The position numbers were made by a program, and so were the translations under genes. Below the pieces are notes generated by a model. The model had not been told where the DNA came from and searched no databases. It saw only the letters and a list, made by a program, of their open reading frames with translations. Below, in pieces: positions 3,444-58,292 of a DNA stretch of 64,000 bases. Position 1 is the stretch's first letter. Every line of letters begins with the position of its first letter. The stretch lies in NCBI GenBank assembly GCA_965242585.1, contig OZ251460.1, forward strand, positions 2,574,692 through 2,638,691, given 5' to 3'. Origin of the DNA: Limisphaerales bacterium. GTDB lineage: Bacteria > Verrucomicrobiota > Verrucomicrobiia > Limisphaerales > AAA164-E04.

Positions 3444-4148
3444 TTACTTCCTTCGGCGCAACAGGAGGAATGCGGCGGCGCCCAAAATCGAGAGCAGGAT
3501 TGCGCTCGGTTCGGGAACGGCAACAATCTCAAGGGCGAAGTTTCCCGTTGTGCCTTCAATCCCGCGCAAAGTCCAACTGACGTTGCCTTCGTCGTCTTCG
3601 GTACTGATCCAAAAGTCGTTTGAACTCTGGCCGGGTTCCGGCGGATTCCGGGTGATGATGCCGACTTCCTGTCCTTCGTTCAATCCGCTGAACTCAACCG
3701 TTACGGTTACGCGATTGGGCAAAATCGCCGGGGTAATATCCTCTCCCTCGATTAACAATGACCCAGTGCCCGGACTCAGCACCTCCAGATTATCCAAATC
3801 AAACGAGTGTCCGAGCAAAATAGAACGGCTTTCGTAGAGGATGGTTCCCGGCTCATAAGTGAAAGCCAAATCTGGATGGGCGGGGCCGTTGTTCTGCCGA
3901 ACTCGAATCACCATTGAACCGGCGACTTCGGAGGTGTAATACTCCAATCCAATGCCGCTTAGGATGAAATTGTCCTCCCATTCGTCGGAACCAAAGGCGA
4001 TTTCATCACCAAATTCCTCAGATCGGAAAGCCGCTCCTCCCACCGGTTGTGAATTATTTAGATAGATTACTTGCTGTGCCTGCGCATTGAGCGCAACTCC
4101 CACGCTAGCGATGAACGCTAACAACTTTCCTGTCGATGCTGTCTTCAT
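3444..4148 (-). CDS. PEP-CTERM sorting-domain secreted protein
   Basis: N-terminal signal peptide (MKTASTGKLLAFIASVGVALNAQAQ). The C-terminus VPEPSAILLSILGAAAFLLLRRRK has the PEP motif, a TM helix and a basic tail. Confidence 0.85.
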   Translation of the reverse strand: MKTASTGKLLAFIASVGVALNAQAQQVIYLNNSQPVGGAAFRSEEFGDEIAFGSDEWEDNFILSGIGLEYYTSEVAGSMVIRVRQNNGPAHPDLAFTYEPGTILYESRSILLGHSFDLDNLEVLSPGTGSLLIEGEDITPAILPNRVTVTVEFSGLNEGQEVGIITRNPPEPGQSSNDFWISTEDDEGNVSWTLRGIEGTTGNFALEIVAVPEPSAILLSILGAAAFLLLRRRK

Positions 4149-12905: not shown

Positions 12906-13693
12906 TTTTGGTACTCAGCCTCAATGTCGGCAAGAATCCCCAATGTTGAAGAGCCGCAAACTCTTCTTGACGGTCGCATTTTGCGTTAATCAAATTGCTC
13001 CTGAGTTGGTGTTCCGTCCACGCTAATTCATCCTCTCTATCCGCATCCTCTTTCGCATCCTTCTTGACTTTTTCAAGTGTCGAGTAGATTGCGGCCAAAG
13101 CAACGGAATGCTTTGTAAGGCAAAGAGTCTGCGCCGTCCAAAAAGCGGGGCCGGTAAATGTTGCAATTGCCAATTCGCAGGCGACAAGCTGGGCTTGCGC
13201 TGCGGCAACGGCCAAAGCGGCTTTTTTTCGTCGCCGCATCCACTCTATCGGCATAAGTATGGCGATTTTGAGTCTGAATTGCGGTGTAGATTTCTCCAGA
13301 TCGTTCGAGCAAATTGAACCGACGATCCATGATTTTCTGCGTGGCTTTGCGGTAGCGTTCATCTTCTTCCCATTCCTGCTGGTCGCGAATGTCGTTGCAT
13401 TCTTGCCAAGTCGACGGAAGAGTCACGCAACACGGGAGGCGGCAATTCTCGGAAAGATGAAGAACATACGGATGTTCTTGCGCCCATGTCGGTGGCGCGT
13501 AATTGATTGTGATGGCCAAGACCGCCAACGAAACGATGACTCCGGCCAATCCGAGAGTCGTCGTCTGCTTTTCTATGTTTGTAGACTTCATAACTTTAGA
13601 TTTGTTTGTTTTGGCGACGCCCATCACAAGAACGCCAGCTGTTGAAAGAACAATCCACCAAAACTCTCGATTTGTCCAGGACTTTTTTTGCAA
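12877..13693 (-). pseudogene. Membrane protein gene split by a frameshift at an A7 run (two track ORFs, 13073..13693 and 12877..13362)
   Basis: The N-terminal part (2 TM helices, ...ERYRKATQKIMDRRFNLLERSGEIYTAIQTQNRHTYADRVDAATKK) is in one frame. The protein-like continuation (KKAALAVAAAQAQLVACELAIATFTGPAFW...) is in another. The two meet at T7 13222-13228. Confidence 0.45.
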
Positions 13694-13732
13694 AACTTAT
13701 TGAACCGTTATTGATAGGTTATTTACAATTGG

Positions 13733-14524
13733 TTACGTTCGCTTGGCGTGGCAGATGGAACAGCGAAAATGACGCGTATTTCTGGGGATTGGGTTGTGGC
13801 GAACAAAGATTCGGGAGCAGTAATCGCAGGTGTAAACGTAGTTTCCGGCGATGATTTCCGCCAGGCGGTCTTGGAGGTAAAAAGGCGGAATGCGAAACTC
13901 AAAGTTGGTTAACGAGAACGCAGTGTGCCGATGTTCGGCGCGCAGTTCTTCGGGATGGGTTGTGGCGACGAAAACATTGCGGGTGTATTCGGAATGCGCA
14001 ATGCGAACGGCGGGCAAAATATCGGCGTCTCCGGTGATAATGCAATGATAGTCGTTTGGCTGCGTGATGGCGAAGCGGATGAGCAGCGCGACGACCGTTG
14101 TGTCCACTTGCTTCTCGTGATAGGCGTTTTGCATCAACCCTTGCAGAATCCAGGGGCGAAGATCAGGCCGCAACACTGCCGAGCCGGAGTATCCCGCATT
14201 CATGGCCGCCTCCACAAACTGATTGCGGGCATGGACGACTCGGCGGAAGTGTTCCAAGTGCTTGGGGCGGATGTTGTTTTCCAAAGCCGGCCAATTGTCC
14301 AGATCCTCGGGCAAGGTAAAAATAGAGGTCGCTATGTAGCGGACGCCCAAACTCTTGCAAGCGCCGTCGTGTCCGCAAACGTGCCGCAAGAGAGATTGAT
14401 CCAAACGAGCAAAGTCCAACCGAACAGATGTATCCGGATGTTCGGTTTTGTCCGCCAGAACATGATCCGGGGCCGCCACCTTGAACAGCCACGAGCCGTC
14501 AATAAAGACATTGATTTTCGACAT
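13733..14524 (-). CDS. NYN-domain (LabA/PIN-like) nuclease with C-terminal zinc ribbon
   Basis: MSKINVFIDGSWLF, EKQVDTTVV and ITGDADILPAV are the acidic NYN motifs. The C-terminus YTCDYCSRIF...HFRCSICHAKRT is CxxC...CxxC. The start is set at ATG 14524. Confidence 0.75.
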   Translation of the reverse strand: MSKINVFIDGSWLFKVAAPDHVLADKTEHPDTSVRLDFARLDQSLLRHVCGHDGACKSLGVRYIATSIFTLPEDLDNWPALENNIRPKHLEHFRRVVHARNQFVEAAMNAGYSGSAVLRPDLRPWILQGLMQNAYHEKQVDTTVVALLIRFAITQPNDYHCIITGDADILPAVRIAHSEYTRNVFVATTHPEELRAEHRHTAFSLTNFEFRIPPFYLQDRLAEIIAGNYVYTCDYCSRIFVRHNPIPRNTRHFRCSICHAKRT

Positions 14525-14878
14525 AAGCGATAATTGCTCAACGCTTCGGCGCAATGGCCGGCAGGCATAATTCCTTACCTTGTCGGCACGAAAAAGCAAG
14601 GCGAAATTTTCAAACATCGATCCTCTTCCCGCTTTCTTTTGGTTGGCCTTTTGGCGGAATTTCTTTTCATTGGGCGCCGTTTTTACCTTTTTCTAACCCT
14701 CGACAACTTCGCGTCAAAGATCAACAATTGGAGACCCGGCATATGCAAAGAAAACAAGAGCGACGCTATCGGGAAGAGCGGAAGCGCAATCCCGCGTTCA
14801 AAGAGGGGAAACGCGAACGCCAAGCGCAAGGAACGCAGAAAATCTGGCCAAACTTAAGAACAAGCAGAAGCCGCTAAT

Positions 14879-15652
14879 TCAAAGTTCTAGGGTTTGTCGT
14901 CGTTTCTTCTTTTGTTGCTGGCGATGAAAGAAGACGAAACCCAGGGCAAAGAGGCCGAAGATGAGGGCGTATTCTTCGGGTTCGGGGATGACTTGGCTGT
15001 TGACGACAACCCGAATCGAGCCTTCAGAACTCGCCGTGAACACGGGGGATGAAGCGTTGGCACGGAAGGTTCCCGCAAAGAAGTCGCCGATGGGTTTGTT
15101 GATGATGCCGGAACCCACCCAAGAAAAAGATGCTCCGCTGATATAAGAGAGAGCGGCGCTCCCAGAAACGCGAATCCCCATGTCATCTGCACCGCCGCTA
15201 TCCTCATCCAGAAAAAGATGGGAAATAGTTCGGTTGACGGAGGGGATGGACGGCGTGTTGGTGGCAGTGGCGGCAAAGGTGATGTTGGTTCGGCCGCCGC
15301 CCGGAATTCTGGCTCTCACCGAAGCGATGTCTGTCGGATTGCTGGAACTGGAAAACAAGGGAGAAAGTTGAAAGTTGGTATCGCTGGGCTTGTTAGCGTC
15401 GAAAATGTTTCCGTTATTATCGGAGGTCGAGATTTGCCAAGAGTCTTGATCCGCGTAAGTATTAGAGCCTGAGCCTGTTCGGATGCTGTTGTTGGCAGTC
15501 GTAGTGGAGGAGCCGCTAAAAATCCAGATGGTTTGGTTGTTGTTGTCTTGGCTGGGATAGATGTGGAGGTACAACTGCGCGTTCGCTACCCCCCCCCCCC
15601 CCCCCCCGCAAAGGCAGACGACGGCCACTAAGAAAAATAATTTTCGGTTCAT
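14879..15652 (-). CDS. PEP-CTERM sorting-domain surface protein (cassette A) with a Gly6 stretch encoded by a poly-G tract
   Basis: Signal peptide MNRKLFFLVAVVCLCGGGGGGVANAQ. The C-terminus VIPEPEEYALIFGLFALGFVFFHRQQQKKKRR is a PEP-CTERM anchor. The start is set at ATG 15652, because the track's upstream extension is leader sequence. Confidence 0.8.
   Translation of the reverse strand: MNRKLFFLVAVVCLCGGGGGGVANAQLYLHIYPSQDNNNQTIWIFSGSSTTTANNSIRTGSGSNTYADQDSWQISTSDNNGNIFDANKPSDTNFQLSPLFSSSSNPTDIASVRARIPGGGRTNITFAATATNTPSIPSVNRTISHLFLDEDSGGADDMGIRVSGSAALSYISGASFSWVGSGIINKPIGDFFAGTFRANASSPVFTASSEGSIRVVVNSQVIPEPEEYALIFGLFALGFVFFHRQQQKKKRRQTLEL
15589..15607. repeat. Homopolymeric tract C19 (G19 on the coding strand)
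   Basis: Counted from the sequence and cross-checked against the track translation (six Gly codons plus the G of GTA). Confidence 0.85.
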
Positions 15653-16340
15653 AAATATCGGTAATTTAAAAAGTTCGCTTTGTTTATTATCCTCTCCAAA
15701 GAAAAGAGTCAAGCACCAAAAAGCAAAAAAAGGAAAAAAGTTCAAAAAAAAGTTCGTTGGAAAACGACAAAAACCGACAAAAAGAGCGAAAGAGAGCGCC
15801 ATCCCGCCTTGGCCGATGACGAAGTTCTGCTTGACCGGTTGCCGATCGCGGAGGAGGAATCCCGGGAAGGCGACAGCGGCGAGCCGCCAGCCATTGCCTT
15901 GGCCAAGAAAGCGCATCCTCCCACCTTCCCATTGCGGGAAGAAAGAAGAAAGTCTTGGTGGCAGGCGAGTGCTTTGGGGAGGACTCTGAATTCAGAAGGA
16001 CGCATTGAAGGAGACAGCAAAACAACGAAATCCGCCAACAAGCGCGCCCTCCATCCCGCCTTGTCGGTCGCGAAAAGGAAAGTTTTTGCGGTGGTTGGAG
16101 GTCAAGCGGTGAGTGGATTCGTTTGATGGAGGATGAGCGGTTGCCGCTCGTTGTGGCTGTGATTTCTTTCTTCAACAACCAAGCATTGAGCAGAATTCGC
16201 TTGGTGGATTAGCGGGCAAAAAGAGCTTGTGTCGGGAGTTGCTTGCCGGTTTGCGCATTCTCTGGCTTTTGGGTGCTGGAAGGAATTTTCTTTGGATCTG
16301 CCGGGTTGAGGCTTCTTTTGGATTGGCCCCATCGGATAAG
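15653..16340 (-). repeat. Leader copy A of the duplicated PEP-CTERM cassette (patchy homology to 53935..54612, inverted)
   Basis: By-eye alignment of the reverse complement. Shared blocks include TTATCCGATG.GG..AATCCAAAAGAAGC..CAACCC, GAATGCGCA.ACC, CTTGGTTGTTGAAGAAAGAAATCAC, CATCAAACGAATCCAC and CGGCCAAGGCGG...CGCTCTTTTT...TTTCCAAC.A..TTTTT...GCTTGAC. Confidence 0.7.
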
Positions 16341-16829
16341 CGCAAAGCATAGATGGTTGGTTTGATTGTGCCGCAAAGTCCTTCGCCGGAGCAGATGCAT
16401 AACTTTTGCGCAGGGATGGATGTCAGCGGACAATGCGAAATATTGGAACGAAGTATGCTTGTTTGCAGATGTTGACGGTGGAGGAAATCTTGGATGGCAA
16501 GCGTTTTGACACTTCCAGCGCGGCCGGCAAAACATCCATCGCCCCATCTTTTTCTTATGAGGCAAGGCGCCGCTCAAACGCAAAATCCCCTTTGCAAAAA
16601 AAATGCCGGAAACCTTTTTTGAGCGAAGTTCTATAACGACCGAAGAGGAAAACAAGCAAGATGAGTCGTCCGGGAAAAACGCGAGCAGGATTTTGCTTGG
16701 GTTTGACGGTTAGAGGGGGCAAGGCATTCTCCGCCGTTGTCCAATTGCTTAGTTGAATGCTCGCGTTGGCGGTTCTTGAAGAATTATACTCAGGTACCTT
16801 GTTTGGCGGTTGATTTTGAAGGGTAGATT

Positions 16830-17057
16830 ATGAGTGAGATTGCAATTCTGTTGTTATTAGGGTTGATCTTGATGATCGGGGTGCTTTTGGCGTTTCTTCC
16901 GGCTATGATTGCGTATTGGCGTTCTCATCAAAATCGCAAGGTAATTGGGTTAGGGTGCATTCTTTGCATTGTGCCTTTGTTTTTGATTTTTCCCTTTAAT
17001 TTGGCTTTTTGGGCCGCGCTGTTAATTTGGTCGTTTATGGATTTTCCTAATCGATGA
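16830..17057 (+). CDS. Small 2-3 TM membrane protein, superinfection-immunity (Imm)-like
   Basis: 75 aa. FLPAMIAYWRSHQNRKVI resembles the YFLPsiIA..Rkh.n motif of the Imm_superinfect family. The assignment is from memory only. Confidence 0.45.
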   Translation: MSEIAILLLLGLILMIGVLLAFLPAMIAYWRSHQNRKVIGLGCILCIVPLFLIFPFNLAFWAALLIWSFMDFPNR

Positions 17058-17144
17058 GTGTTTTTGAAATTGGGGCGATCAGGTGTGGACTTGATTGTCT
17101 GTGGTTGAGACGGTAGACGGCGGTTTGTTTTTTTTTTTTCAAAA

Positions 17145-17714
17145 GTGGAAACAAAGGCAAAGGTTGGATTCAGCGAGGCGGCGGGGCGCAGCGCGGGGTT
17201 GGTTCTGCTGATGTTTGGGATCGAGCTGGCGGACTCGTTGCTGGATGGGGATTTGGAGCGGTTTGGGATTCGTCCGTGGGAGTTTGTCGGTTTGTCCGGC
17301 GTTATTTTTGCCCCTTTGCTTCACGGAGATTGGACTCATTTAGCGGCCAACGGGCCGCCGCTGTTTGCGCTGTTGCTCATTCTCTTTTGGAATCCTCGCT
17401 ATTTACCGGGGCGCAGTTTGTTTTTGATTTGGGCGCTTGGAGGGTTGGGAACTTGGTTGATCGGGCGGGGCGACGCCGTTCACATCGGCGCCAGTTTGCT
17501 TGTCTTCGGTTTGATCAGTTATTTGATCGTGGCCGCGGTTTGGATGCGGTGTTGGCGGGCGCTGTTTTTTTCCATCGCCGTTTTTGTGTACTTCGTATTG
17601 TTCGGAGGGTTTTTCGGCGGCTTGTTTCCCGTGGAGCAGCGAGTGTCGTGGGAGGGACATTTGAGCGGCGCGGTGGCTGGTTTTTGGACGGCTTGGATCA
17701 ATCACAAACGGTAA
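17145..17714 (+). CDS. Rhomboid-family intramembrane serine protease
   Basis: 189 aa, polytopic. It has the catalytic-Ser context HIGASLLVFGLISY (GxSx) and the His context HLSGAVAGFW. GTG start. Confidence 0.8.
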   Translation: METKAKVGFSEAAGRSAGLVLLMFGIELADSLLDGDLERFGIRPWEFVGLSGVIFAPLLHGDWTHLAANGPPLFALLLILFWNPRYLPGRSLFLIWALGGLGTWLIGRGDAVHIGASLLVFGLISYLIVAAVWMRCWRALFFSIAVFVYFVLFGGFFGGLFPVEQRVSWEGHLSGAVAGFWTAWINHKR

Positions 17715-17730
17715 TTGCCAAGCCGCCGCC

Positions 17731-18417
17731 TTACGGCTTCCAGCGTAACTCCAAAGCGTTGGTTTGGCCGCGACTGGCGGCGAAGTCCCAATAAGCGTGA
17801 TTGGGAAAGCGGCGGGCGTGTCCGTCCAAAAACAGGAAGTTGGCTCCGTTGGAGTGAAGGTTGGTGTGAACGTTATTTTGCTCGGCCACCGCTGCCTTTT
17901 TTCCGTTGTCAAACAGCCAGACGAGCGAATGGGGCGACGGCAACGTGGACAGTTTAACGTGATTGCCCGAACCGCTCCCGTTGACCAGCCGATTTAGGCA
18001 GTAGTGGAAAAGGTTGATTCCGTTGCTCTTTCGCTTGTTGGCCGGACACAGCCAGACCGTTTTCGGGAGGGCAACGGCGGGATTGGTGCGCCAAGGCAGT
18101 TCGTAGTAGCGGGGAAGTCCGATCATGTCGGGAAGATTGACATACCAGCCAAACTGGGTTGCCCGCCCGTTTGGCGCGCCGTCTTGGGGAAGGGAGTCGT
18201 CGTTTTCCAAAGCGTAAAGTTGCGTAGCGATTCCCCATTGTTTCAAATGGCTCAGGCATTGCGCTTTTCTGGCCGCTCCCATTGCCTTGCTCAGCGCCGG
18301 CGAGAGCAGAGCGAACAACAGAGAAAGGATCGCCGCCACAACCAGAATTTCAATCAGGGTAACACCGCAGTGCTTGCGCGAGGCCAAAACGATCCCGCCG
18401 TTCCCGGAAAATCTCAT
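17731..18417 (-). CDS. Prepilin-type N-terminal cleavage/methylation domain protein, H-X9-DG family
   Basis: GVTLIEILVVAAILSLLFALLSPAL is the pilin-like N-terminus. The C-terminal HSNGANFLFLDG is the H-X9-DG motif. The family is typical of PVC bacteria. Confidence 0.85.
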   Translation of the reverse strand: MRFSGNGGIVLASRKHCGVTLIEILVVAAILSLLFALLSPALSKAMGAARKAQCLSHLKQWGIATQLYALENDDSLPQDGAPNGRATQFGWYVNLPDMIGLPRYYELPWRTNPAVALPKTVWLCPANKRKSNGINLFHYCLNRLVNGSGSGNHVKLSTLPSPHSLVWLFDNGKKAAVAEQNNVHTNLHSNGANFLFLDGHARRFPNHAYWDFAASRGQTNALELRWKP

Positions 18418-52285: not shown

Positions 52286-53686
52286 TTATGGTTTCTCCGG
52301 CCTTGTTCGTTTCCGAGAACGGCTCGGACGCGAAAGGGCGTTCTCCGTTGCGTAGGGTCGAAACTCGTTCAAGCAGTGGGGCGGAATCCGCGCTTCGATT
52401 TCTGCGCAGTTTTCTTTATATTCCAAATGCAGGACTTGGCCGACTTCGTGAATTCTGGCAATCACTGAAGCTCTGCTCACGGGAACGGAAAGCCGCAGAG
52501 CCTCCCGAACGGGACGGAGGCATTGGGAGAGTTGGGTTTTCAACGAGTCCAATCCAATCCCTGAAGTGGCGGAGACGCCCACCGCCAAAGAATAGGGGCC
52601 GCTGTGTCGTTCCCACAAGTCGGTAGACTCTAAGCGGTCAATTTTGTTGAAAACCATCAGCGTGGGTTTTTCCAGAGCGCCGATTTCGGCCAGCACTTGG
52701 TTGACGGCTTCAACTTGAAGTTCGGCTTGCGGGCGGCTGGCGTCCACGACGTGAAGCAGAAGATCAGCCTCGGACACTTCTTCCAGCGTGGCTTTGAAGG
52801 CTTCGACCAGCCGGTGCGGCAGCTTACGAATGAATCCCACCGTGTCGGAAAGCAAAACCTTTTGGTTCGTGTCCAGCGTCAATCTTCGGGTGGTTGGGTC
52901 TAAAGTGGCGAACAGTCGGTCTTCCGCCCGTTCGTCCGCGCCGGCGAGGCGGTTCAACAAGGTAGATTTTCCCGCGTTGGTATAGCCGACGATGGAAGCC
53001 AGCGGCCAGTGCCGTCGTCGCCGTCGTCGCCGTTGCACGGAGCGGTGCTTGCGAACTTGCTCTAGCGCCGCCGTCAAACGGCCAATCCGCTCTTGAACAC
53101 GCCGTCGATCCGTCTCCAACTGCGATTCGCCGTCGCCCCGCATTCCAATGCCACCCTTCTGCCGAGAAAGGTGCGTCCAAAATCGGGTAAGCCGAGGAAG
53201 GAGGTGCCGCAGTTGAGCCAGTTCCACTTGGAGCTTTCCCTCTTTTGTCCAGGCTCGCTGCGCAAAAATATCCAAAATAAGCGAGGTGCGGTCGATGATC
53301 TTGCGGTCGAAAACTCGCTCCAGATTTCTGCTCTGCCCCGGCGTCAGCTCGTCGTCAAAAATAACCGTGTCCGCGCATTTCTCTCGGCACTCGGCGGCAA
53401 ACTGCTCCGCCTTTCCCCGTCCGATGAACGTGCCGGAAACCGGGCGATCCAACTTTTGCATTCCCTCTCCGACGACTTCGCCTCCGGCGGTTTGCGCTAG
53501 ACTGGCCAATTCTTCCAACGATTCCTTGAAGTCCGATTGCGGCCTAGACTGAATGGCGGCGCCGATTAAGAAGACCCTCTCTCCCGGAGACGATGTCGAG
53601 CGGGACGATTGCCGGACTTCGCCGGCGCTAAAACCTTTTGCAATCGACATAGTTCTCCTCAATGCCGGCTCGGCAGGCGAAGTCAA
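52286..53686 (-). CDS. hflX: GTPase HflX
   Basis: The HflX N-terminal domain, G1 GYTNAGKSTL, G3 SDTVGF and NKID. Confidence 0.9.
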   Translation of the reverse strand: MTSPAEPALRRTMSIAKGFSAGEVRQSSRSTSSPGERVFLIGAAIQSRPQSDFKESLEELASLAQTAGGEVVGEGMQKLDRPVSGTFIGRGKAEQFAAECREKCADTVIFDDELTPGQSRNLERVFDRKIIDRTSLILDIFAQRAWTKEGKLQVELAQLRHLLPRLTRFWTHLSRQKGGIGMRGDGESQLETDRRRVQERIGRLTAALEQVRKHRSVQRRRRRRRHWPLASIVGYTNAGKSTLLNRLAGADERAEDRLFATLDPTTRRLTLDTNQKVLLSDTVGFIRKLPHRLVEAFKATLEEVSEADLLLHVVDASRPQAELQVEAVNQVLAEIGALEKPTLMVFNKIDRLESTDLWERHSGPYSLAVGVSATSGIGLDSLKTQLSQCLRPVREALRLSVPVSRASVIARIHEVGQVLHLEYKENCAEIEARIPPHCLNEFRPYATENALSRPSRSRKRTRPEKP

Positions 53687-53934
53687 ACCAATACCCCATC
53701 AGCGCGGCATTTAGCCAGCATAAAGTTTGTTAGGATACAAAGCGAGCGCATTCCTTGGCCGAGCAGGAATTTTCAGGGCGGCAAGTTTCCTTTGAAGGCC
53801 GGCACTCGCCGATTGACTCTCGGCCTTTCCTTACTCGCAAACAATCCTCTCACGGACTTGCCGAGCAGGAAAACCAAACTTTTGAAGCCGAACATGCAAC
53901 TTCCTTGTCTAGATCTTTTAGACCGAGTTCACGT

Positions 53935-54612
53935 TTATCCGATGCGGAGAATCCAAAAGAAGCGCCAACCCAACAAACCCCAAGAAACTCTCCTCCCCAC
54001 TCCTCAGCAACCCAAAATGCGCCAGCCAGCAAACCACGACCACCCCCCGATGATTGTCGCCAATGCCATCGGCAACGACCTCAAATCACAGAATGCGCAG
54101 ACCAAAAACCGCACCCACACCAGCTTTTTTTGCTCACCAATCTCCCAGCGAATCCGCTCACCGCTTGGTTGTTGAAGAAAGAAATCACGGCCCCAATAAA
54201 CGACAACTGCTCATCCATCCATCAAACGAATCCACCCGGTATCTTTGGCCGCGGTTCACTTAAAAATTTTCTTTTCCACACCGGCAAAGCAAGATTCTAC
54301 GCTCTTTTGGCAAAGTCAGCAACTTGCGGATAAGGATTCGAGGCAAGCGGATTTTCCGCAGCGGCCAAGGCGGCATTTCCTCGCCCGAATGGCCCGGGTC
54401 GCGCTCTTTTTGAGGGATTTTGCCGGTTTCCAACAAATTTTTCTTCACTTTTTTCTCTTTTTTGTGATTTTGGGCTTGACGCGGGGCGGATGGAAGGTTA
54501 TCCAAAAGCCAGATCGCATTGCGAATTGGGTTATCATAGCAGATTTTTTGGTTGCAGTTATATGGTTATATTTTAGTTATTTAGTTTTAGTTATTTAGTT
54601 ATTTTTTTCGTT
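53935..54612 (+). repeat. Leader copy B of the duplicated PEP-CTERM cassette (inverted relative to 15653..16340)
   Basis: The same shared sequence blocks as listed for copy A, at nearly the same distance from the start codon (about 680 nt). Confidence 0.7.
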
Positions 54613-55340
54613 ATGAAGATTCAAAAATATTTGAACGCTAGGAACCCGAAGTTGTCAAAATTCGGGCATCGGCAATCAGTCTGTTCTCAATCAGTCTGTT
54701 CTCAATCAGTCTGTTCTCAATCAGTCTGTTCTCAATCAGTCTGTTCTCAATCAGTCTGCTCTCAATCAGTCTGCTCTCAATCAGTCTGCTCTCAATCAGT
54801 CTGCTCTTGTAGCGGCGTTAGTGGTGTCGGCGCTCTCTTTGGTTGCTGTAGAGCAGAGCCAAGCGCAGTTGTATTTGGACATCTTTCCTTCCCAAGACAA
54901 CACCAATAACACGCTCTGGATCTTTAGCGGCTCCTCCACTGCCCGAGCGCATAGCAATGCCGGCCCTTGGATTCGCCGAAGTGGTGCTTATGACCGCAAA
55001 GACACCCACAAAACCAGCCAAGCCTTGTTACGCTCCGGCTCCGGCCTCCACGCCTTGACGCCGCTGTTCACGGCCAGCGTCACCAACGCGCCGTTAGACT
55101 TCGAGTCTCTGCGAACGCGGCTGGGGCAAACCATCAAGCTGGGAACCACCAACACCCTCGACGACATCACCATTCCCAGCACCGCTACCAACACGCCAAC
55201 CATCACCTTCACCGGACGGGGCAGCCGAACCAAAAGAATATGCCCTCGTCTTCGCCTTGGTTGCCCTCGGTTTTGTCTTCTTCCACCGCCATTGGCAAAA
55301 GAAACAACGCCAACAACAACATTCCACCCCCGCTTCGTAG
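54613..55340 (+). pseudogene. PEP-CTERM surface-protein paralogue (cassette B) split over three reading frames
   Basis: ATG 54613 is followed by a basic n-region and (QSVCS)9 in frame 1. The h-region and mature part, LVAALVVSALSLVAVEQSQAQLYLDIFPSQDNTNNTLWIFSGSS..., are in frame 2. The anchor AAEPKEYALVFALVALGFVFFHRHWQKKQRQQQ* is in frame 3 and ends at 55340. The N-terminal 25 mature residues and the anchor are clearly homologous to 14879..15652. Confidence 0.6.
54673..54807 (+). repeat. 15-bp tandem repeat x9 (CAATCAGTCTGTTCT x5 then CAATCAGTCTGCTCT x4)
   Basis: Read directly from the sequence. The track ORF 54613..54909 translates it as nine QSVCS units. Confidence 0.95.
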
Positions 55341-55842
55341 TCTGCTCTTAGTTGGGCGATTTAGGGTGGCCGACTTTCTGCTGGTTGGCGGGACAACATA
55401 ACGACCAATCGTCATCACCGCCTCATAGCAGGGGATGTCTGAGGCTGGCGATCCGCAGTTGTGCCAGCGGTCAGTTCTCGTAGCTTGTGGTTTGTGGCTT
55501 GGGATTGGTAGTTAGGCGGGCGGTTGTTGCCAGCAAACCGGACTTAGAGGCTGGCTTGGCGTCGGGGATTGTCCCAAGCGGAGTTTTGGTTCTTTGCCCG
55601 CGCAGTCTCATCCGGGAACGGCAAGCTTGGGAAGGAACACCAAAAGGAACGGGAAGGAACGGGAAGGAACGGGATTGAAAGAAAGGGATGAGGTGAAGGT
55701 GGCAGTTGTGTCTTGGTTTTTCCTTTCTCTTTATCCTTGCCAGTCGTGTTCAAAAAAATCAAAAACCAAGACTTAGAATTCTGAATCTGCAATTTGGAGT
55801 CGTCAAACAGTGCGTTTAGAGGGGGCTCTGCCGAATCACCGA

Positions 55843-56238
55843 TTAGAATTCGCTGGCTTTACGAGCCGGCATTTGGTCGTTGTTCGCTGGTTTTCGGAAA
55901 CTTGCCGCCAGCCAAAGCCAGCCGAGGATAAGCGACGCGCCGCCAACGGGCGCGACGGCTCCCAACCACTCCCATCCGCTGATCGCGAGCAGGTAGAGCG
56001 ATCCGGAGAAAACGGCGATTCCGAACAGGAAACACCACCAAGGTTTGGACTTTCCTTGATCGGCGCACCACAAGAGGGCTAAGGTGTGGATGAAGTGGTA
56101 GAATGCGGCGGTTTCCCAAATATCGGCGGTTTGGTGCGCCGAGAGGGTTTCGCGGAGGCTGTGAGCGCCGAAAGCGCCCAACACAACCGCCAAAGCGCCG
56201 CTGCAAGCGGCTATTCTGAATCGACTTGTCAAACTCAT
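55843..56238 (-). CDS. DUF423-domain membrane protein
   Basis: Start set at ATG 56238. MSLTSRFRIAACSGALAVVLGAFGAHSL...FYHFIHTLALL...GSLYLLA is the DUF423 (YgdD-like) pattern. Confidence 0.8.
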   Translation of the reverse strand: MSLTSRFRIAACSGALAVVLGAFGAHSLRETLSAHQTADIWETAAFYHFIHTLALLWCADQGKSKPWWCFLFGIAVFSGSLYLLAISGWEWLGAVAPVGGASLILGWLWLAASFRKPANNDQMPARKASEF

Positions 56239-56438
56239 TGTCGCCGCATTATATTGCCGTCGCGAGCCGATGAAAAGGTTTGCTTTGGAGCCGCTTTCAC
56301 GGTTTCTTGGCCGATATAAAGAGCAGGTGTTTATGTAGTGGAAGTGGAACGAGATTTCGCGCAAACTGCCCGGAAGGAAGTATGGAGAAAGAACCGCCGC
56401 TCCGCAGGAGCGCATGAGTAACAGGAGAAAGAAGAACG

Positions 56439-58292
56439 ATGATACCCAGAAGCCACCGAACTCAACCGTCATTGGCCGCCATTTTTGCCGTCGGCCTAGC
56501 ATTTTTTCCCGGTCTTGTTTCCAGTCAAGAGCGCTTTAGCGAGCTGGTTGGGCCGGTGAACGTTCAATCCGTCCATGCCGGCGCCGCTCTTCGGGTGCCT
56601 TACATCACTTGGGGCGGAGATATGGCGACTTTTTACGCCAACGGCGGATTGAAGACGAAGCCGGGCTCCATTTTTGACCAGCAAGGACTCCGTCTCAATC
56701 TGGTTGCCGGCGATGACTTCGTCGGACAGGTTCGCGACTATCTTTCCGGGAAAAGCCCTTTTCTGCGAGGCACGTTTCGGATGATGGGCATGGCTTCGGA
56801 AGTGATTGGTTCTGATCCGCGCACCAAAGGCGTGGCGATTTTGCAAATGACTTGGTCGGCCGGGGATCATCTAATCTCGCGCGGCGCAATCAAAACGGTG
56901 GCCGATTTGAAGGGAAGGACCGTCGCTTTGCAACAGGGCGGCCCTCACGTCGGCATGTTAGACGACGTTCTTAAGACTGCTCAGCTTTCGTGGAACGACA
57001 TTCAGGTTCGCTGGGCAAAAGACTTGACGGGGACTGAGGACTCGCCGTCAGAGATTTTTCGGAACGACGACAAAGTGGACGCCTGCTTCGCCATTACTCC
57101 GGATATGCTCGGCCTTTGCGGGGGGCTGGACAATCAAGGCACCGGCGCCGAAGGAACGGTAAAAGGCGCCAAAGTGTTGGTGTCTACCGCCGAGCTTTCC
57201 CGCTCTATTGCCGATGTGTACGTATGCCGGAAAGACTTTTACGACGCCAACAAAGCCATGATTACGAAGTTTGTCGCCGGTTATTTGAAGGCGACTGAAG
57301 AAGTGATCGACTTGAAGAAGCAGTTTGAAGATCGCGGCTCGAGTTCTTTCGAGGCGCTTCTCCAAACCACGCAGAACATTTACGGCAAGAAAACCATTCC
57401 CGTGCTGGAAGAGGCGCACGGGCTGATTTCTGATTGCGCCTTTGTCGGGTATCCGGGAAACGTCGTCTTCTTCACGGAGAAAGGCAACTTGAGCGGCTTT
57501 GAGGCGTTTCAAAAGGCGGCTTTGGACCTGGCCGTCGAACGGGGATATGCCCGAGAACGCATGGGGCTTTTTCCTTCCGGCCTGAATTATCAAGGAAGCG
57601 AATTCATTGGCTACTTGACGAAAACCGACATTCAACGCGGCGAGCGATTTCGCGCCGAAGCGGTGCGCAGTGAAATTGAGGCGCTCGTTTCCGGCGAGGC
57701 ACTGGACGATAAAACCATTCTCTCCTTTACGATCAACTTTGAACCGAACCAAATTGAGTTCAGCGCCGTCCAATACGGCGCCGAGTTTCAGCGCGTTGTG
57801 GAGATCGCCGAACGTTTCGGCAACGCCGTCATCGCCATCCGAGGCCACGCCGACCCTACCAAAACCCTGTCGGAATTCGTCCGCGCCGGCCTCAAAAAAG
57901 GGGTTCTCAAACAATCCGGCACTCGCGGCAATTACAGATACTCGCTTCGGGGGCGTCCGCTGGACCTCAACGCCACCGCCGAACTCATCCAACTGGTCGA
58001 AACCGGCGCCTTTGACGGCGTCGCCGATCACAATCCGCGCGAAACCATGCAAGCCGCACTCAATCTCTCCCGCAAACGGGCCGAAGCCGTGTTCCAATCG
58101 ATTACTCAATACGCGCAGTCCAAAGGGCTCAATTTGGACAAAAGCCAAATTCAACCCACCGGCATCGGCGTCCGCGAACCCTTCATCGCCAAACCGCGCA
58201 ATATCGACGAAGCCCGCCAAAACATGCGCGTCGAGTTCCGCGTCATTCGCGTTCCCGCCGAGGCGACGATAGAATCTGATTTTGACTTTTAG
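56439..58292 (+). CDS. Periplasmic substrate-binding (NMT1/PhnD-like) domain fused to a C-terminal OmpA-like domain
   Basis: A signal peptide and then an SBP-like region. The C-terminus is IAIRGHADPT...(insert)...LSRKRAEAVFQSITQYAQSKGL...GIGVREPF...NMRVEFRVIRV, which is an OmpA_C pattern. I recall this architecture being annotated as phosphate ABC transporter substrate-binding/OmpA family. Confidence 0.7.
   Translation: MIPRSHRTQPSLAAIFAVGLAFFPGLVSSQERFSELVGPVNVQSVHAGAALRVPYITWGGDMATFYANGGLKTKPGSIFDQQGLRLNLVAGDDFVGQVRDYLSGKSPFLRGTFRMMGMASEVIGSDPRTKGVAILQMTWSAGDHLISRGAIKTVADLKGRTVALQQGGPHVGMLDDVLKTAQLSWNDIQVRWAKDLTGTEDSPSEIFRNDDKVDACFAITPDMLGLCGGLDNQGTGAEGTVKGAKVLVSTAELSRSIADVYVCRKDFYDANKAMITKFVAGYLKATEEVIDLKKQFEDRGSSSFEALLQTTQNIYGKKTIPVLEEAHGLISDCAFVGYPGNVVFFTEKGNLSGFEAFQKAALDLAVERGYARERMGLFPSGLNYQGSEFIGYLTKTDIQRGERFRAEAVRSEIEALVSGEALDDKTILSFTINFEPNQIEFSAVQYGAEFQRVVEIAERFGNAVIAIRGHADPTKTLSEFVRAGLKKGVLKQSGTRGNYRYSLRGRPLDLNATAELIQLVETGAFDGVADHNPRETMQAALNLSRKRAEAVFQSITQYAQSKGLNLDKSQIQPTGIGVREPFIAKPRNIDEARQNMRVEFRVIRVPAEATIESDFDF

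Follow-up and report, generated by a model that had tools for sequence, protein, structure and literature searches.

A large family of PEP-CTERM-like gene cassettes with repeat-bearing signal peptides and mosaic structure in a Limisphaerales bacterium

Introduction

Why would a bacterial chromosome keep two inverted copies of a gene for a small PEP-CTERM-like protein, each behind some 0.7 kb of related upstream DNA? The question is raised by a 64,000-nucleotide (nt) stretch of a Limisphaerales bacterium (Verrucomicrobiota; GenBank assembly GCA_965242585.1, contig OZ251460.1, positions 2,574,692 to 2,638,691), here called the window, in which cassette A (14879-16346, minus strand) and cassette B (53932-55340, plus strand) lie 38 kb apart. 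An initial annotation had taken them for a special pair, with A expressed, B a silent donor for gene conversion, and the two copies able to flip the DNA between them. We compared both cassettes with the rest of the genome under study (G000) and with two sister genomes of the same genus, independently assembled (G001 and G009); coordinates are positions in the window unless prefixed C1:, which denotes genome contig coordinates. We judge it probable that A and B belong to a lineage-specific family of at least 60 autonomous cassettes for small, beta-rich, PEP-CTERM-like surface proteins, which would diversify by repeat slippage and by segmental or whole-cassette gene conversion with occasional crossovers.

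Results

Cassettes A and B belong to a large family

A blastn comparison of 13500-18000 with 52500-56500 returned six colinear, inverted high-scoring segment pairs (HSPs) at 78-81% identity, with E-values down to 9e-31 (Table 1), and not merely short chance matches. The blocks extend to about 690 nt upstream of the ATG, in good agreement with the approximately 680 nt of homology first noticed. The longest exact run that A and B have in common, 26 nt, falls inside a conserved upstream element that we call boxU. Translation of both copies upheld the resemblance at the protein level: the mature N-termini are AQLYLHIYPSQDNNNQTIWIFSGSST in A and AQLYLDIFPSQDNTNNTLWIFSGSST in B, and A and B alike carry a tail with a PEP motif, a transmembrane segment and basic residues.

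The two cassettes are not a special pair, contrary to what had been supposed. Genome-wide blastn with A or B gave hundreds of HSPs, which resolve into 113 loci with at least one cassette module. A six-frame motif scan of G000 found 61 genes whose mature N-terminus reads Q-L-x-[LI]-x-[IV]-[YF]-P-S-Q-D, the further copies for which a genome search had been proposed, together with 93 tails of the PEP, transmembrane and basic type; in about 48 of the family genes, N-terminus and tail share a single frame. G001 and G009 hold approximately 76 family matches each, 5'-only and 3'-only fragments included. Two exosortase genes are present in the genome, with PF09721 scores of 143.9 and 143.1 bits (C1:3670914 and C1:997513).

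The protein encoded by A consists of a signal peptide (MNRKLFFLVAVVCLCGGGGGGVANA, recognised by inspection of the translation, with the mature protein beginning QL), a beta-rich ectodomain of about 200 residues and a PEP-CTERM-like tail, VIPEPEEYALIFGLFALGFVFFHRQQQKKKRRQTLEL, in which the PEP motif, the hydrophobic helix and the basic cluster are followed by the stop codon. We rejected a 345-residue open reading frame (ORF) from 15916 as the gene of A, since it is a mere upstream extension through stop-poor sequence. The full-length protein matched no family in Pfam or NCBIfam, and its 264 database homologues, which come from metagenomes and from two NCBI genomes (G001 and G009), have neither a Pfam domain nor a name. 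AlphaFold2, given 71 homologues, yielded a confident and mostly beta model with a mean pLDDT of 81. A Foldseek search of this model against the PDB gave a best E-value of 0.029, with a query-normalised TM-score below 0.25 and at most 0.31 when normalised to the target (small targets), so that no fold was assigned; the resemblances are vague ones to beta-sandwiches and adhesins. The genome's best match to the PEP-CTERM tail model TIGR02595 (28.6 bits) also lies in the window, at 3447-3518 (minus strand), where it ends a 242-residue open frame of a different family.

Simple repeats probably set the reading frame of most family genes

Within 170 nt upstream of the mature N-terminus, 49 of the 61 genes carry a simple repeat, which thus falls in the signal-peptide region. 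Poly-G tracts of 8-24 nt are the most frequent (27 loci), followed by the 8-nt units GGCAAGCG / GACAAGCG (10 loci) and by poly-C tracts of 10-15 nt (9 loci), while single loci carry 12 copies of the 7-nt unit ACTGCGA, 10 copies of the 8-nt unit GGAACAGC and, in B, nine copies of a 15-nt unit. Both A, with its tract of 19 G, and the family thus have in their 5' coding region a repeat unit that is not divisible by three, as in opa and pilC.

The length of these repeats and the frame of the gene go together. The poly-G tract of A stands in the context TGC-G(n)-TAGCG, where n = 3k leads immediately to a TAG stop and n = 3k+2 shifts the frame. Genes of the GGCAAGCG / GACAAGCG class are in frame with three copies (2/2 loci) and out of frame with two (8/8 loci). 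Counting all classes, 16 of the 61 genes have an in-frame ATG with a plausible signal peptide. Of eight near-identical duplicate pairs (600-nt flank, at least 99.7% identity, at most one substitution), five differ only in the length of the tract; provided that the homopolymers are correctly assembled, tract length therefore changes much faster than substitutions accumulate. In G001 and G009 the orthologous slots have repeats of other lengths. We infer that the repeats would switch at a high rate in living populations.

Across G000 there are 100 G/C homopolymers of at least 10 nt, whose length distribution has a distinct second peak at 10-24 nt, and many of them lie in the signal-peptide regions of the family. 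Most are framed as GC-G(n)-TA(C/G). Some of these occur in unrelated genes, and G/C homopolymers precede prepilin-type N-terminal motifs at C1:3544858 and C1:3039816.

Cassette A is a mosaic of its paralogues

Sliding windows of 120 nt reveal five changes of nearest paralogue over the 1.5 kb of A. Embedded in sequence of 70-90% identity are exact tracts of 88-268 nt, which come from five different paralogues (Table 1), and neighbouring segments may have opposite affinities: over the 268 nt of the distal leader A shows 0 differences from the copy at C1:386 and 94 (49 mismatches, 45 gaps) from that at C1:1036, whereas the order is reversed in the promoter segment, with 27 and 7 differences, respectively. 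Further, whole cassettes of 1.1-2.4 kb, 97.5-100% identical, are found in unrelated flanks, which bears out the early suggestion that leader and gene are duplicated as one unit. Since the ends of these duplicates are variable, they are better explained as conversion tracts than as a transposon. A 21-nt inverted repeat around A (14734-14754 / 16286-16306, 90%) might have been taken for transposon-like ends, but we treat it as a chance occurrence because it was not seen in B by eye and because the boundaries of duplicate cassettes vary.

Among the sources of the tracts in A is a true silent fragment, C1:71836-72303, a 5'-truncated family copy with neither promoter module nor signal peptide. The larger copy to which it belongs (C1:71836-72720) begins near residue 95 of the mature protein and is joined to DNA resembling the distal leader, which has 97.7% identity to C1:2839301-2839694.

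The pattern of exact tracts strongly indicates gene conversion across the family, though not specifically from B. The part of the initial proposal that invoked conversion among copies is therefore retained, and the part that made B the donor of A is not, the exact runs between the two being no longer than 26 nt.

Table 1. Features of cassettes A and B, blocks of A/B homology and exact tracts in A that are common to paralogues.
Feature	Position	Strand	Details
Cassette A gene	14879-15652	-	257-residue precursor (P0001); ATG 15652, stop 14879; in frame (ON)
Poly-G(19) tract	15589-15607	-	C19 on + strand; within signal-peptide coding region
A promoter-like module	15684-15800	-	T-rich 15713-15800; -35 TTGACT 15707-15712; 17-nt spacer; -10 TAATAA 15684-15689
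Distal leader of A (L1)	15801-16346	-	Non-coding mosaic; sub-blocks common, in varied combinations, to ~58 other genome places
boxU	16122-16227	-	~100 nt, core GGTTGTTGAAGAAAGAAATCAC; B copy 54122-54226
Leader of B	53932-54612	+	boxU 54122-54226; -35 TTGACG 54476-54481; -10 TATCCA 54499-54504
B ATG and n-region	54613-54672	+	MKIQKYLNARNPKLSKFGHR; one nt out of frame with mature region; one heptamer CGGGCAT
15-nt tandem repeat	54673-54807	+	9 copies: 5 CAATCAGTCTGTTCT, then 4 CAATCAGTCTGCTCT; mature frame (NQSVL/NQSAL)n
B mature-frame ORF	54821-55351	+	No usable start; 78-81% to relatives' first ~380 nt, then anchor
B PEP-CTERM-like tail	55224-55340	+	Third frame, AEPKEYALVFALVALGFVFFHRHWQKKQRQQQHSTPAS and stop; first P of PEP lost, PEP to AEP
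3' flank element	55341-55480	+	GGGTGGCCGACTTTCTGC...CAACATAACGACCAATCGTCATC...; common to many cassettes
A/B HSP	A 16278-16342		B 53932-53997; 79%; E 1e-9
A/B HSP	A 16113-16264		B 54087-54235; 80%; E 9e-31
A/B HSP	A 15708-15788		B 54402-54480; 78%
A/B HSP	A 15503-15580		B 54863-54940; 81%
A/B HSP	A 15241-15285		B 55164-55208; 80%
A/B HSP	A 14894-14985		B 55225-55316; 78%; E 1e-16
Exact tract, 268 nt	15801-16068	-	Leader of C1:386130-386397
Exact tract, 88 nt	15663-15750	-	C1:1036068; wider 15651-15818 96% to C1:1036056-1036222 (promoter, 5' untranslated region)
Exact tract, 140 nt	15432-15571	-	C1:3112706-3112845, mature N-terminal region
Exact tract, 140 nt	14917-15056	-	C1:3113221-3113360
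Exact tract, 121 nt	14979-15099	-	C1:71915-72035, 5'-truncated promoter-less copy

Cassette B is a decayed copy rather than the donor of A

A is in frame. B, taken for frame-broken at the outset, proved to be broken at both ends. At its 5' end the frame of the mature region has no start codon, and the same out-of-frame ATG is present in the three closest 5' relatives of B (C1:288xxx, C1:484xxx and C1:790xxx). These four cassettes form a sub-class with one or two CGGGCAT heptamers, of which the paralogue C1:484xxx (C1:484685-484745) has two and B one; three copies, or none, would restore the frame, so that the heptamer may be a further type of switch. The 15-nt array of B, expanded in this copy only and present as a single unit in three paralogues, is in frame and leaves the reading frame unaltered. 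Towards the 3' end, alignment with the closest relatives places a deletion of about 275 nt in B, with its junction at about 55226-55232 at the microhomology CCGnACCA, which accounts for the shorter core that had been seen in B. This deletion changed the frame of the anchor and destroyed the first P of its PEP motif. With an out-of-frame ATG and an internal deletion, B is by its reading frames a pseudogene, an OFF copy that could serve at most as a sequence reservoir. An exact tract of 116 nt in its leader (54539-54654) is common to C1:484610 and C1:790490; within its coding sequence the exact runs with any other copy are all of 37 nt or less.

Downstream of B lies a 3' element of about 130 nt (GGGTGGCCGACTTTCTGC...CAACATAACGACCAATCGTCATC...GTTATGGCCGCCAAGC) that also follows some 20 other cassettes. 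Others end instead with a common terminator hairpin (AACTTCGCTTC...GAAGCGAAGTTTTTT), and A has neither of the two.

These data bear on the idea that A is the sole expressed locus and is rewritten, one way, from broken or promoter-less donors such as B, as in silent-cassette antigenic variation. A broken B and a mosaic A are what that idea predicts, and so are the promoter-less truncated copies, one of which (C1:71836-72303) contributes the 121-nt exact tract of A, and the 5'-only and 3'-only fragments of the sister genomes. However, a promoter-like module precedes many copies (73 in the genome, that of B included), in-frame genes with ATG and signal peptide number 16 rather than one, and most of the tracts in A trace to full-length, promoter-bearing paralogues, while B and A have no more than the short runs given above. 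A single expression site with silent donors is thus not what the genome contains, and we regard this explanation as very unlikely.

Cassette slots are conserved and mark chromosome breakpoints

The slots occupied by A and B are kept in G001 and G009, where the flanking DNA is 81-91% identical. The NYN-like ORF downstream of A (13733-14617) and HflX, upstream of B, encode proteins that are 89-93% identical to their counterparts, and each of them adjoins a family cassette in both sister genomes. The content of the slots is another matter. The two slot-A genes of the sister genomes have 78% identity between them, and either has 49-52% amino acid identity to A; A and the G000 paralogue at C1:3112700 have 89.6%. 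Homology to the slot-A DNA of G009 (87%) runs from 14991 downstream, and the paralogue tracts of A stop at 14917; the final ~38 nt of its coding sequence and its 3' flank therefore appear to be native to the slot. In slot B, G001 has a poly-G-class gene and G000 one of the heptamer/15-mer class.

Synteny stops at the cassette in 8/8 flank comparisons (upstream and downstream of A and of B, in two genomes), and the partner flanks adjoin other cassettes of G000, at C1:521xxx, 85xxx, 310xxx, 3686xxx, 2747xxx, 387xxx, 270xxx and 4123xxx. Crossovers in cassettes have therefore reshuffled these chromosomes. The relative orientation of the two flanks of A differs between G000 and G009, which implies at least one inversion with a breakpoint in cassette A.

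Could A and B then be the arms of a reversible 38-kb inversion switch? They are inverted, their leaders face inward, crossovers have taken place inside the cassettes at both slots, and the orientation of the flanks of A has changed between genomes. Against this, the identity between them is 78-80% in patches of at most 153 nt, and their longest exact match is close to the lower limit for RecA-type exchange. Near-perfect inverted ends and a neighbouring recombinase, the marks of invertons and shufflons, are absent from the pair: no recombinase was found among the six A/B flanking genes tested (a rhomboid, a pilin-like DUF1559 protein, HflX, DUF423, one NMT1-like gene and one gene with no match), a screen to which the interior of the 38 kb did not belong. 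The slots are hundreds of kb to Mb apart in G001 and G009, and hence the 38 kb are not a conserved invertible unit. Better substrates also exist elsewhere in the genome. Of what had been proposed, rearrangement of the chromosome by cassette crossovers is retained; the flip of the 38 kb between A and B is the least credible of the alternatives that we weighed, given such patchy homology.

One of these better substrates is a perfect inverted duplicate of 2,616 nt that contains a family cassette (C1:3271714-3274329 and C1:3324687-3327302), the arms of which are about 50 kb apart; it is far better suited to a large inversion than A/B. A repeat of about 3.07 kb, presumably an insertion sequence, occurs in at least six places at 99.7-99.97% identity, including C1:3269997-3273070, and one of its copies abuts a family cassette.

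The upstream region combines a promoter-like module with a shuffled distal leader

A PEP-CTERM gene typically forms a unit of its own, with a long non-coding region upstream and a common, genome-specific cis motif, and further motifs beyond the Proteobacteria were expected still to be discovered (Haft et al. 2006, PMC1569441). The intergenic regions here measure 1,178 nt upstream of A and 926 nt upstream of B. Closest to the gene, 30-100 nt before the ATG, is a module of T-rich tracts (...CCAACGAAnTTTTCTTnACTTTTTTCnnTTTTTTG...) and the hexamers TTGACT-N17-TAnAAA; in A the ATG lies 31 nt beyond the -10 hexamer. In 52 copies aligned on the invariant TTGAC, the hexamers and their spacing are kept while the spacer varies, and the genes in the orthologous G001 and G009 slots are preceded by identical hexamers at identical spacing, though the spacers differ. 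Nhmmer found 73 modules in G000, of which, by classes assigned with our own filters, 38 stand before family genes, 18 before other ORFs with PEP-CTERM tails and 17 are unclassified (at least one of the latter is a family variant), so that at least 56 of the 73 precede PEP-CTERM-type genes. Position and pattern of conservation suggest that the module is a sigma-70-type promoter. A generic promoter and terminator scan did not flag it, the -10 hexamer being weak. The T tracts at 15713-15745, and their equivalents in other copies, vary from T6 to T9, and their length might tune the strength of the putative promoter.

With the module read as a promoter, some 550 nt of the 690 would be situated upstream of it and would not be a transcribed leader. 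The sub-blocks of this distal part are shuffled, duplicated, nested or absent from copy to copy. Within L1 the 5' part of the module is partly repeated (16019-16063 versus 15761-15811; 71%, E 6.5e-4), and in the paralogue C1:386xxx a second promoter module has been inserted together with the first codons of another signal-peptide class. One conserved block is boxU, with 24 nhmmer hits across G000 and the G001/G009 loci and 80-86% identity across the three genomes.

Is the leader coding? The C/A-rich sequence leaves all three sense frames open. However, 72 of the 101 gaps in leader alignments are of 1 nt, and mismatches have no clear codon phase (240/279/222 by position, compared with 1381/1139/1975 in the coding sequence), in keeping with the non-coding nature that had been assigned to the leader. 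A long transcribed 5' untranslated region or regulatory RNA, kept for its structure, is a further alternative, for which the length of the intergenic regions and the conservation of boxU may be cited. Yet an Rfam search of both cassettes gave nothing at E of 1 or less other than a chance-level snoRNA match (E 0.43), and the folding energy of the leader of A is not unusual (z = -1.28). The candidate boxU hairpins, CCAAGCG/CGCTTGG and GAGCGG/CCGCTC, are broken in many of the boxU hits, and the covariation that had been looked for did not appear, as no compensatory changes were seen. The shuffling, duplication and loss of blocks also argue against a conserved structure, as does the promoter-like site near the ATG, downstream of nearly the whole leader. 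We therefore find a leader RNA unlikely; of the two roles first suggested for the leader, the conserved promoter architecture is the one that stands. In the 61 upstream regions of 900 nt, the sigma-54 motif GG-N10-GC had 13 loose matches (6.9 +/- 2.5 in shuffled sequence), scattered from 35 to 882 nt. Our best guess is that boxU and the distal leader are sites for a family-wide regulator, homology anchors kept by conversion, or both.

At 16830-17057 (plus strand), divergent from A, there is a 75-residue membrane ORF with a sub-threshold match to PF14373, a superinfection-immunity family (21 bits, cut-off 27.9).

Discussion

In the model that we consider probable, each unit would comprise a long non-coding upstream region, with a proximal promoter of about 120 nt containing T-rich tracts and a distal patchwork of boxes, followed by a short 5' untranslated region, a repeat-bearing signal-peptide region, a variable ectodomain and a conserved anchor. 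The length of the repeat would set the frame, so that slipped-strand mispairing turns translation on or off. Homologous recombination at the boxes, the promoter, the 25 N-terminal codons and the anchor would copy segments or whole cassettes from slot to slot, and a conversion event occasionally resolved as a crossover would rearrange the chromosome. Cassette A would be a mosaic that is currently ON.

Several observations weigh against this model. The tail of A scores 12.3 bits with TIGR02595, against a cut-off of 16, in a match that covers positions 1-21 of the 24 in the model, and the full-length protein has no listed match to it. Only 10 of the 49 repeat-bearing genes (20%) are in frame, fewer than the 33% expected by chance, and some of them may simply be decaying. 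Tract lengths and frame states come from one assembly of long-read type, in which long homopolymers are error-prone; the tracts identical to paralogues are possibly in part a polishing artefact from mis-mapped reads; and conversion and switching are both deduced from three assemblies. The promoter was assigned by consensus only, with a weak -10 (TAATAA in A, TATCCA in B). Lastly, the model leaves the role of the distal leader and boxU unexplained.

Some of these points would also fit an ordinary, old paralogue family in which the mosaics and the on/off states are artefacts of assembly and polishing, and the similarity of the leaders is neutral hitch-hiking. Such repeats pose difficulties for assembly and polishing, homopolymers 10-24 nt long are prone to error, and the distal leader blocks give no sign of a specific function. 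But two sister genomes, assembled independently, have the same architecture, family size and repeat types, the breakpoints fall consistently at cassettes, five unrelated repeat types occupy one functional position, and the promoter hexamers are kept while the spacer varies. We hold such a combination of artefact and neutral hitch-hiking to be improbable, and continue with the model of switching and recombining cassettes.

The closest analogue of this family appears to be the opa family of Neisseria. In opa, diversity comes mainly from recombination between loci within one genome, which yields mosaic genes, and the CTCTT repeat lies in the leader-peptide region (PMC3960869). Both families consist of dispersed loci with their own promoters, a repeat switch in the signal peptide and recombination within the genome, with the difference that here the switching is predicted from sequence. 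The numbers differ greatly: 3-4 opa genes in meningococci and up to 11 in gonococci, against at least 61 here, five to twenty times more. The single repeat type of opa contrasts with at least five here (poly-G, poly-C, 7-, 8- and 15-nt units), and its 8-stranded outer-membrane barrels with beta-rich ectodomains on a PEP-CTERM-like anchor. The organism, too, is different, an uncultured environmental verrucomicrobium that is possibly sponge-associated.

Other known systems match in part. The PEP-CTERM substrates described earlier (PMC1569441) are also single-gene units with more than 200 nt of non-coding upstream DNA, an upstream sequence common to each genome, lineage-specific expansion of paralogues and an exosortase. 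The upstream element here, a sigma-70-like TTGACT-N17-TAnAAA with boxU, is unlike the proteobacterial motif-1/sigma-54 arrangement; the tail falls short of the TIGR02595 cut-off, and repeat switches and conversion do not figure in that paper. In pilC1/pilC2 of Neisseria and in the poly-G genes of Campylobacter and Helicobacter, a G tract in the 5' coding region sets the frame (in pilC within the signal peptide), whereas here poly-G is one of several repeat types in one very large family that recombines and shares promoters. The pilE/pilS, vlsE/vls and msp2 systems resemble it in the segmental conversion that gives mosaic surface genes, and in their truncated promoter-less copies. They differ in that no single expression site exists here and the majority of copies are complete and promoter-bearing, and each would be switched on its own by its repeat. 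We found no paper that links PEP-CTERM genes with repeat-mediated phase variation, only incidental co-mentions; the homopolymers that the Akkermansia genome paper reports are in capsule genes rather than PEP-CTERM genes.

A bolder reading, which we advance tentatively and do not favour, takes the upstream region as the scaffold of a family-wide diversity generator, with the conserved boxes as homology anchors. If this were true, 60-100 cassettes per genome, promoter-less fragments included, would exchange promoters, switch types and ectodomain segments, while at least five kinds of slippery repeat would gate the copies independently, a combinatorial variation of the surface on a scale unknown outside pathogens. 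It would be the first such system for exosortase-sorted proteins, and one that also drives chromosome rearrangement in its lineage.

Phase-variable, recombining families of surface proteins are well known from Neisseria, Helicobacter, Campylobacter, Mycoplasma and other host-adapted pathogens. Our analysis suggests the same logic in an uncultured environmental verrucomicrobium, on a much larger scale and in a different class of proteins, that of PEP-CTERM and exosortase, the biology of which is largely unknown; the variety of repeat types would be new. It would also offer a concrete reason for PEP-CTERM genes to have the long conserved upstream regions noted since 2006. The family would be a driver of genome rearrangement, which bears on the assembly and comparison of such genomes. 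Finally, the proteins are presumably surface-exposed and their variation adaptive, for example as an escape from phage, grazers or a host, and the analysis suggests that they are under antagonistic selection as targets of phage, grazing or host recognition.

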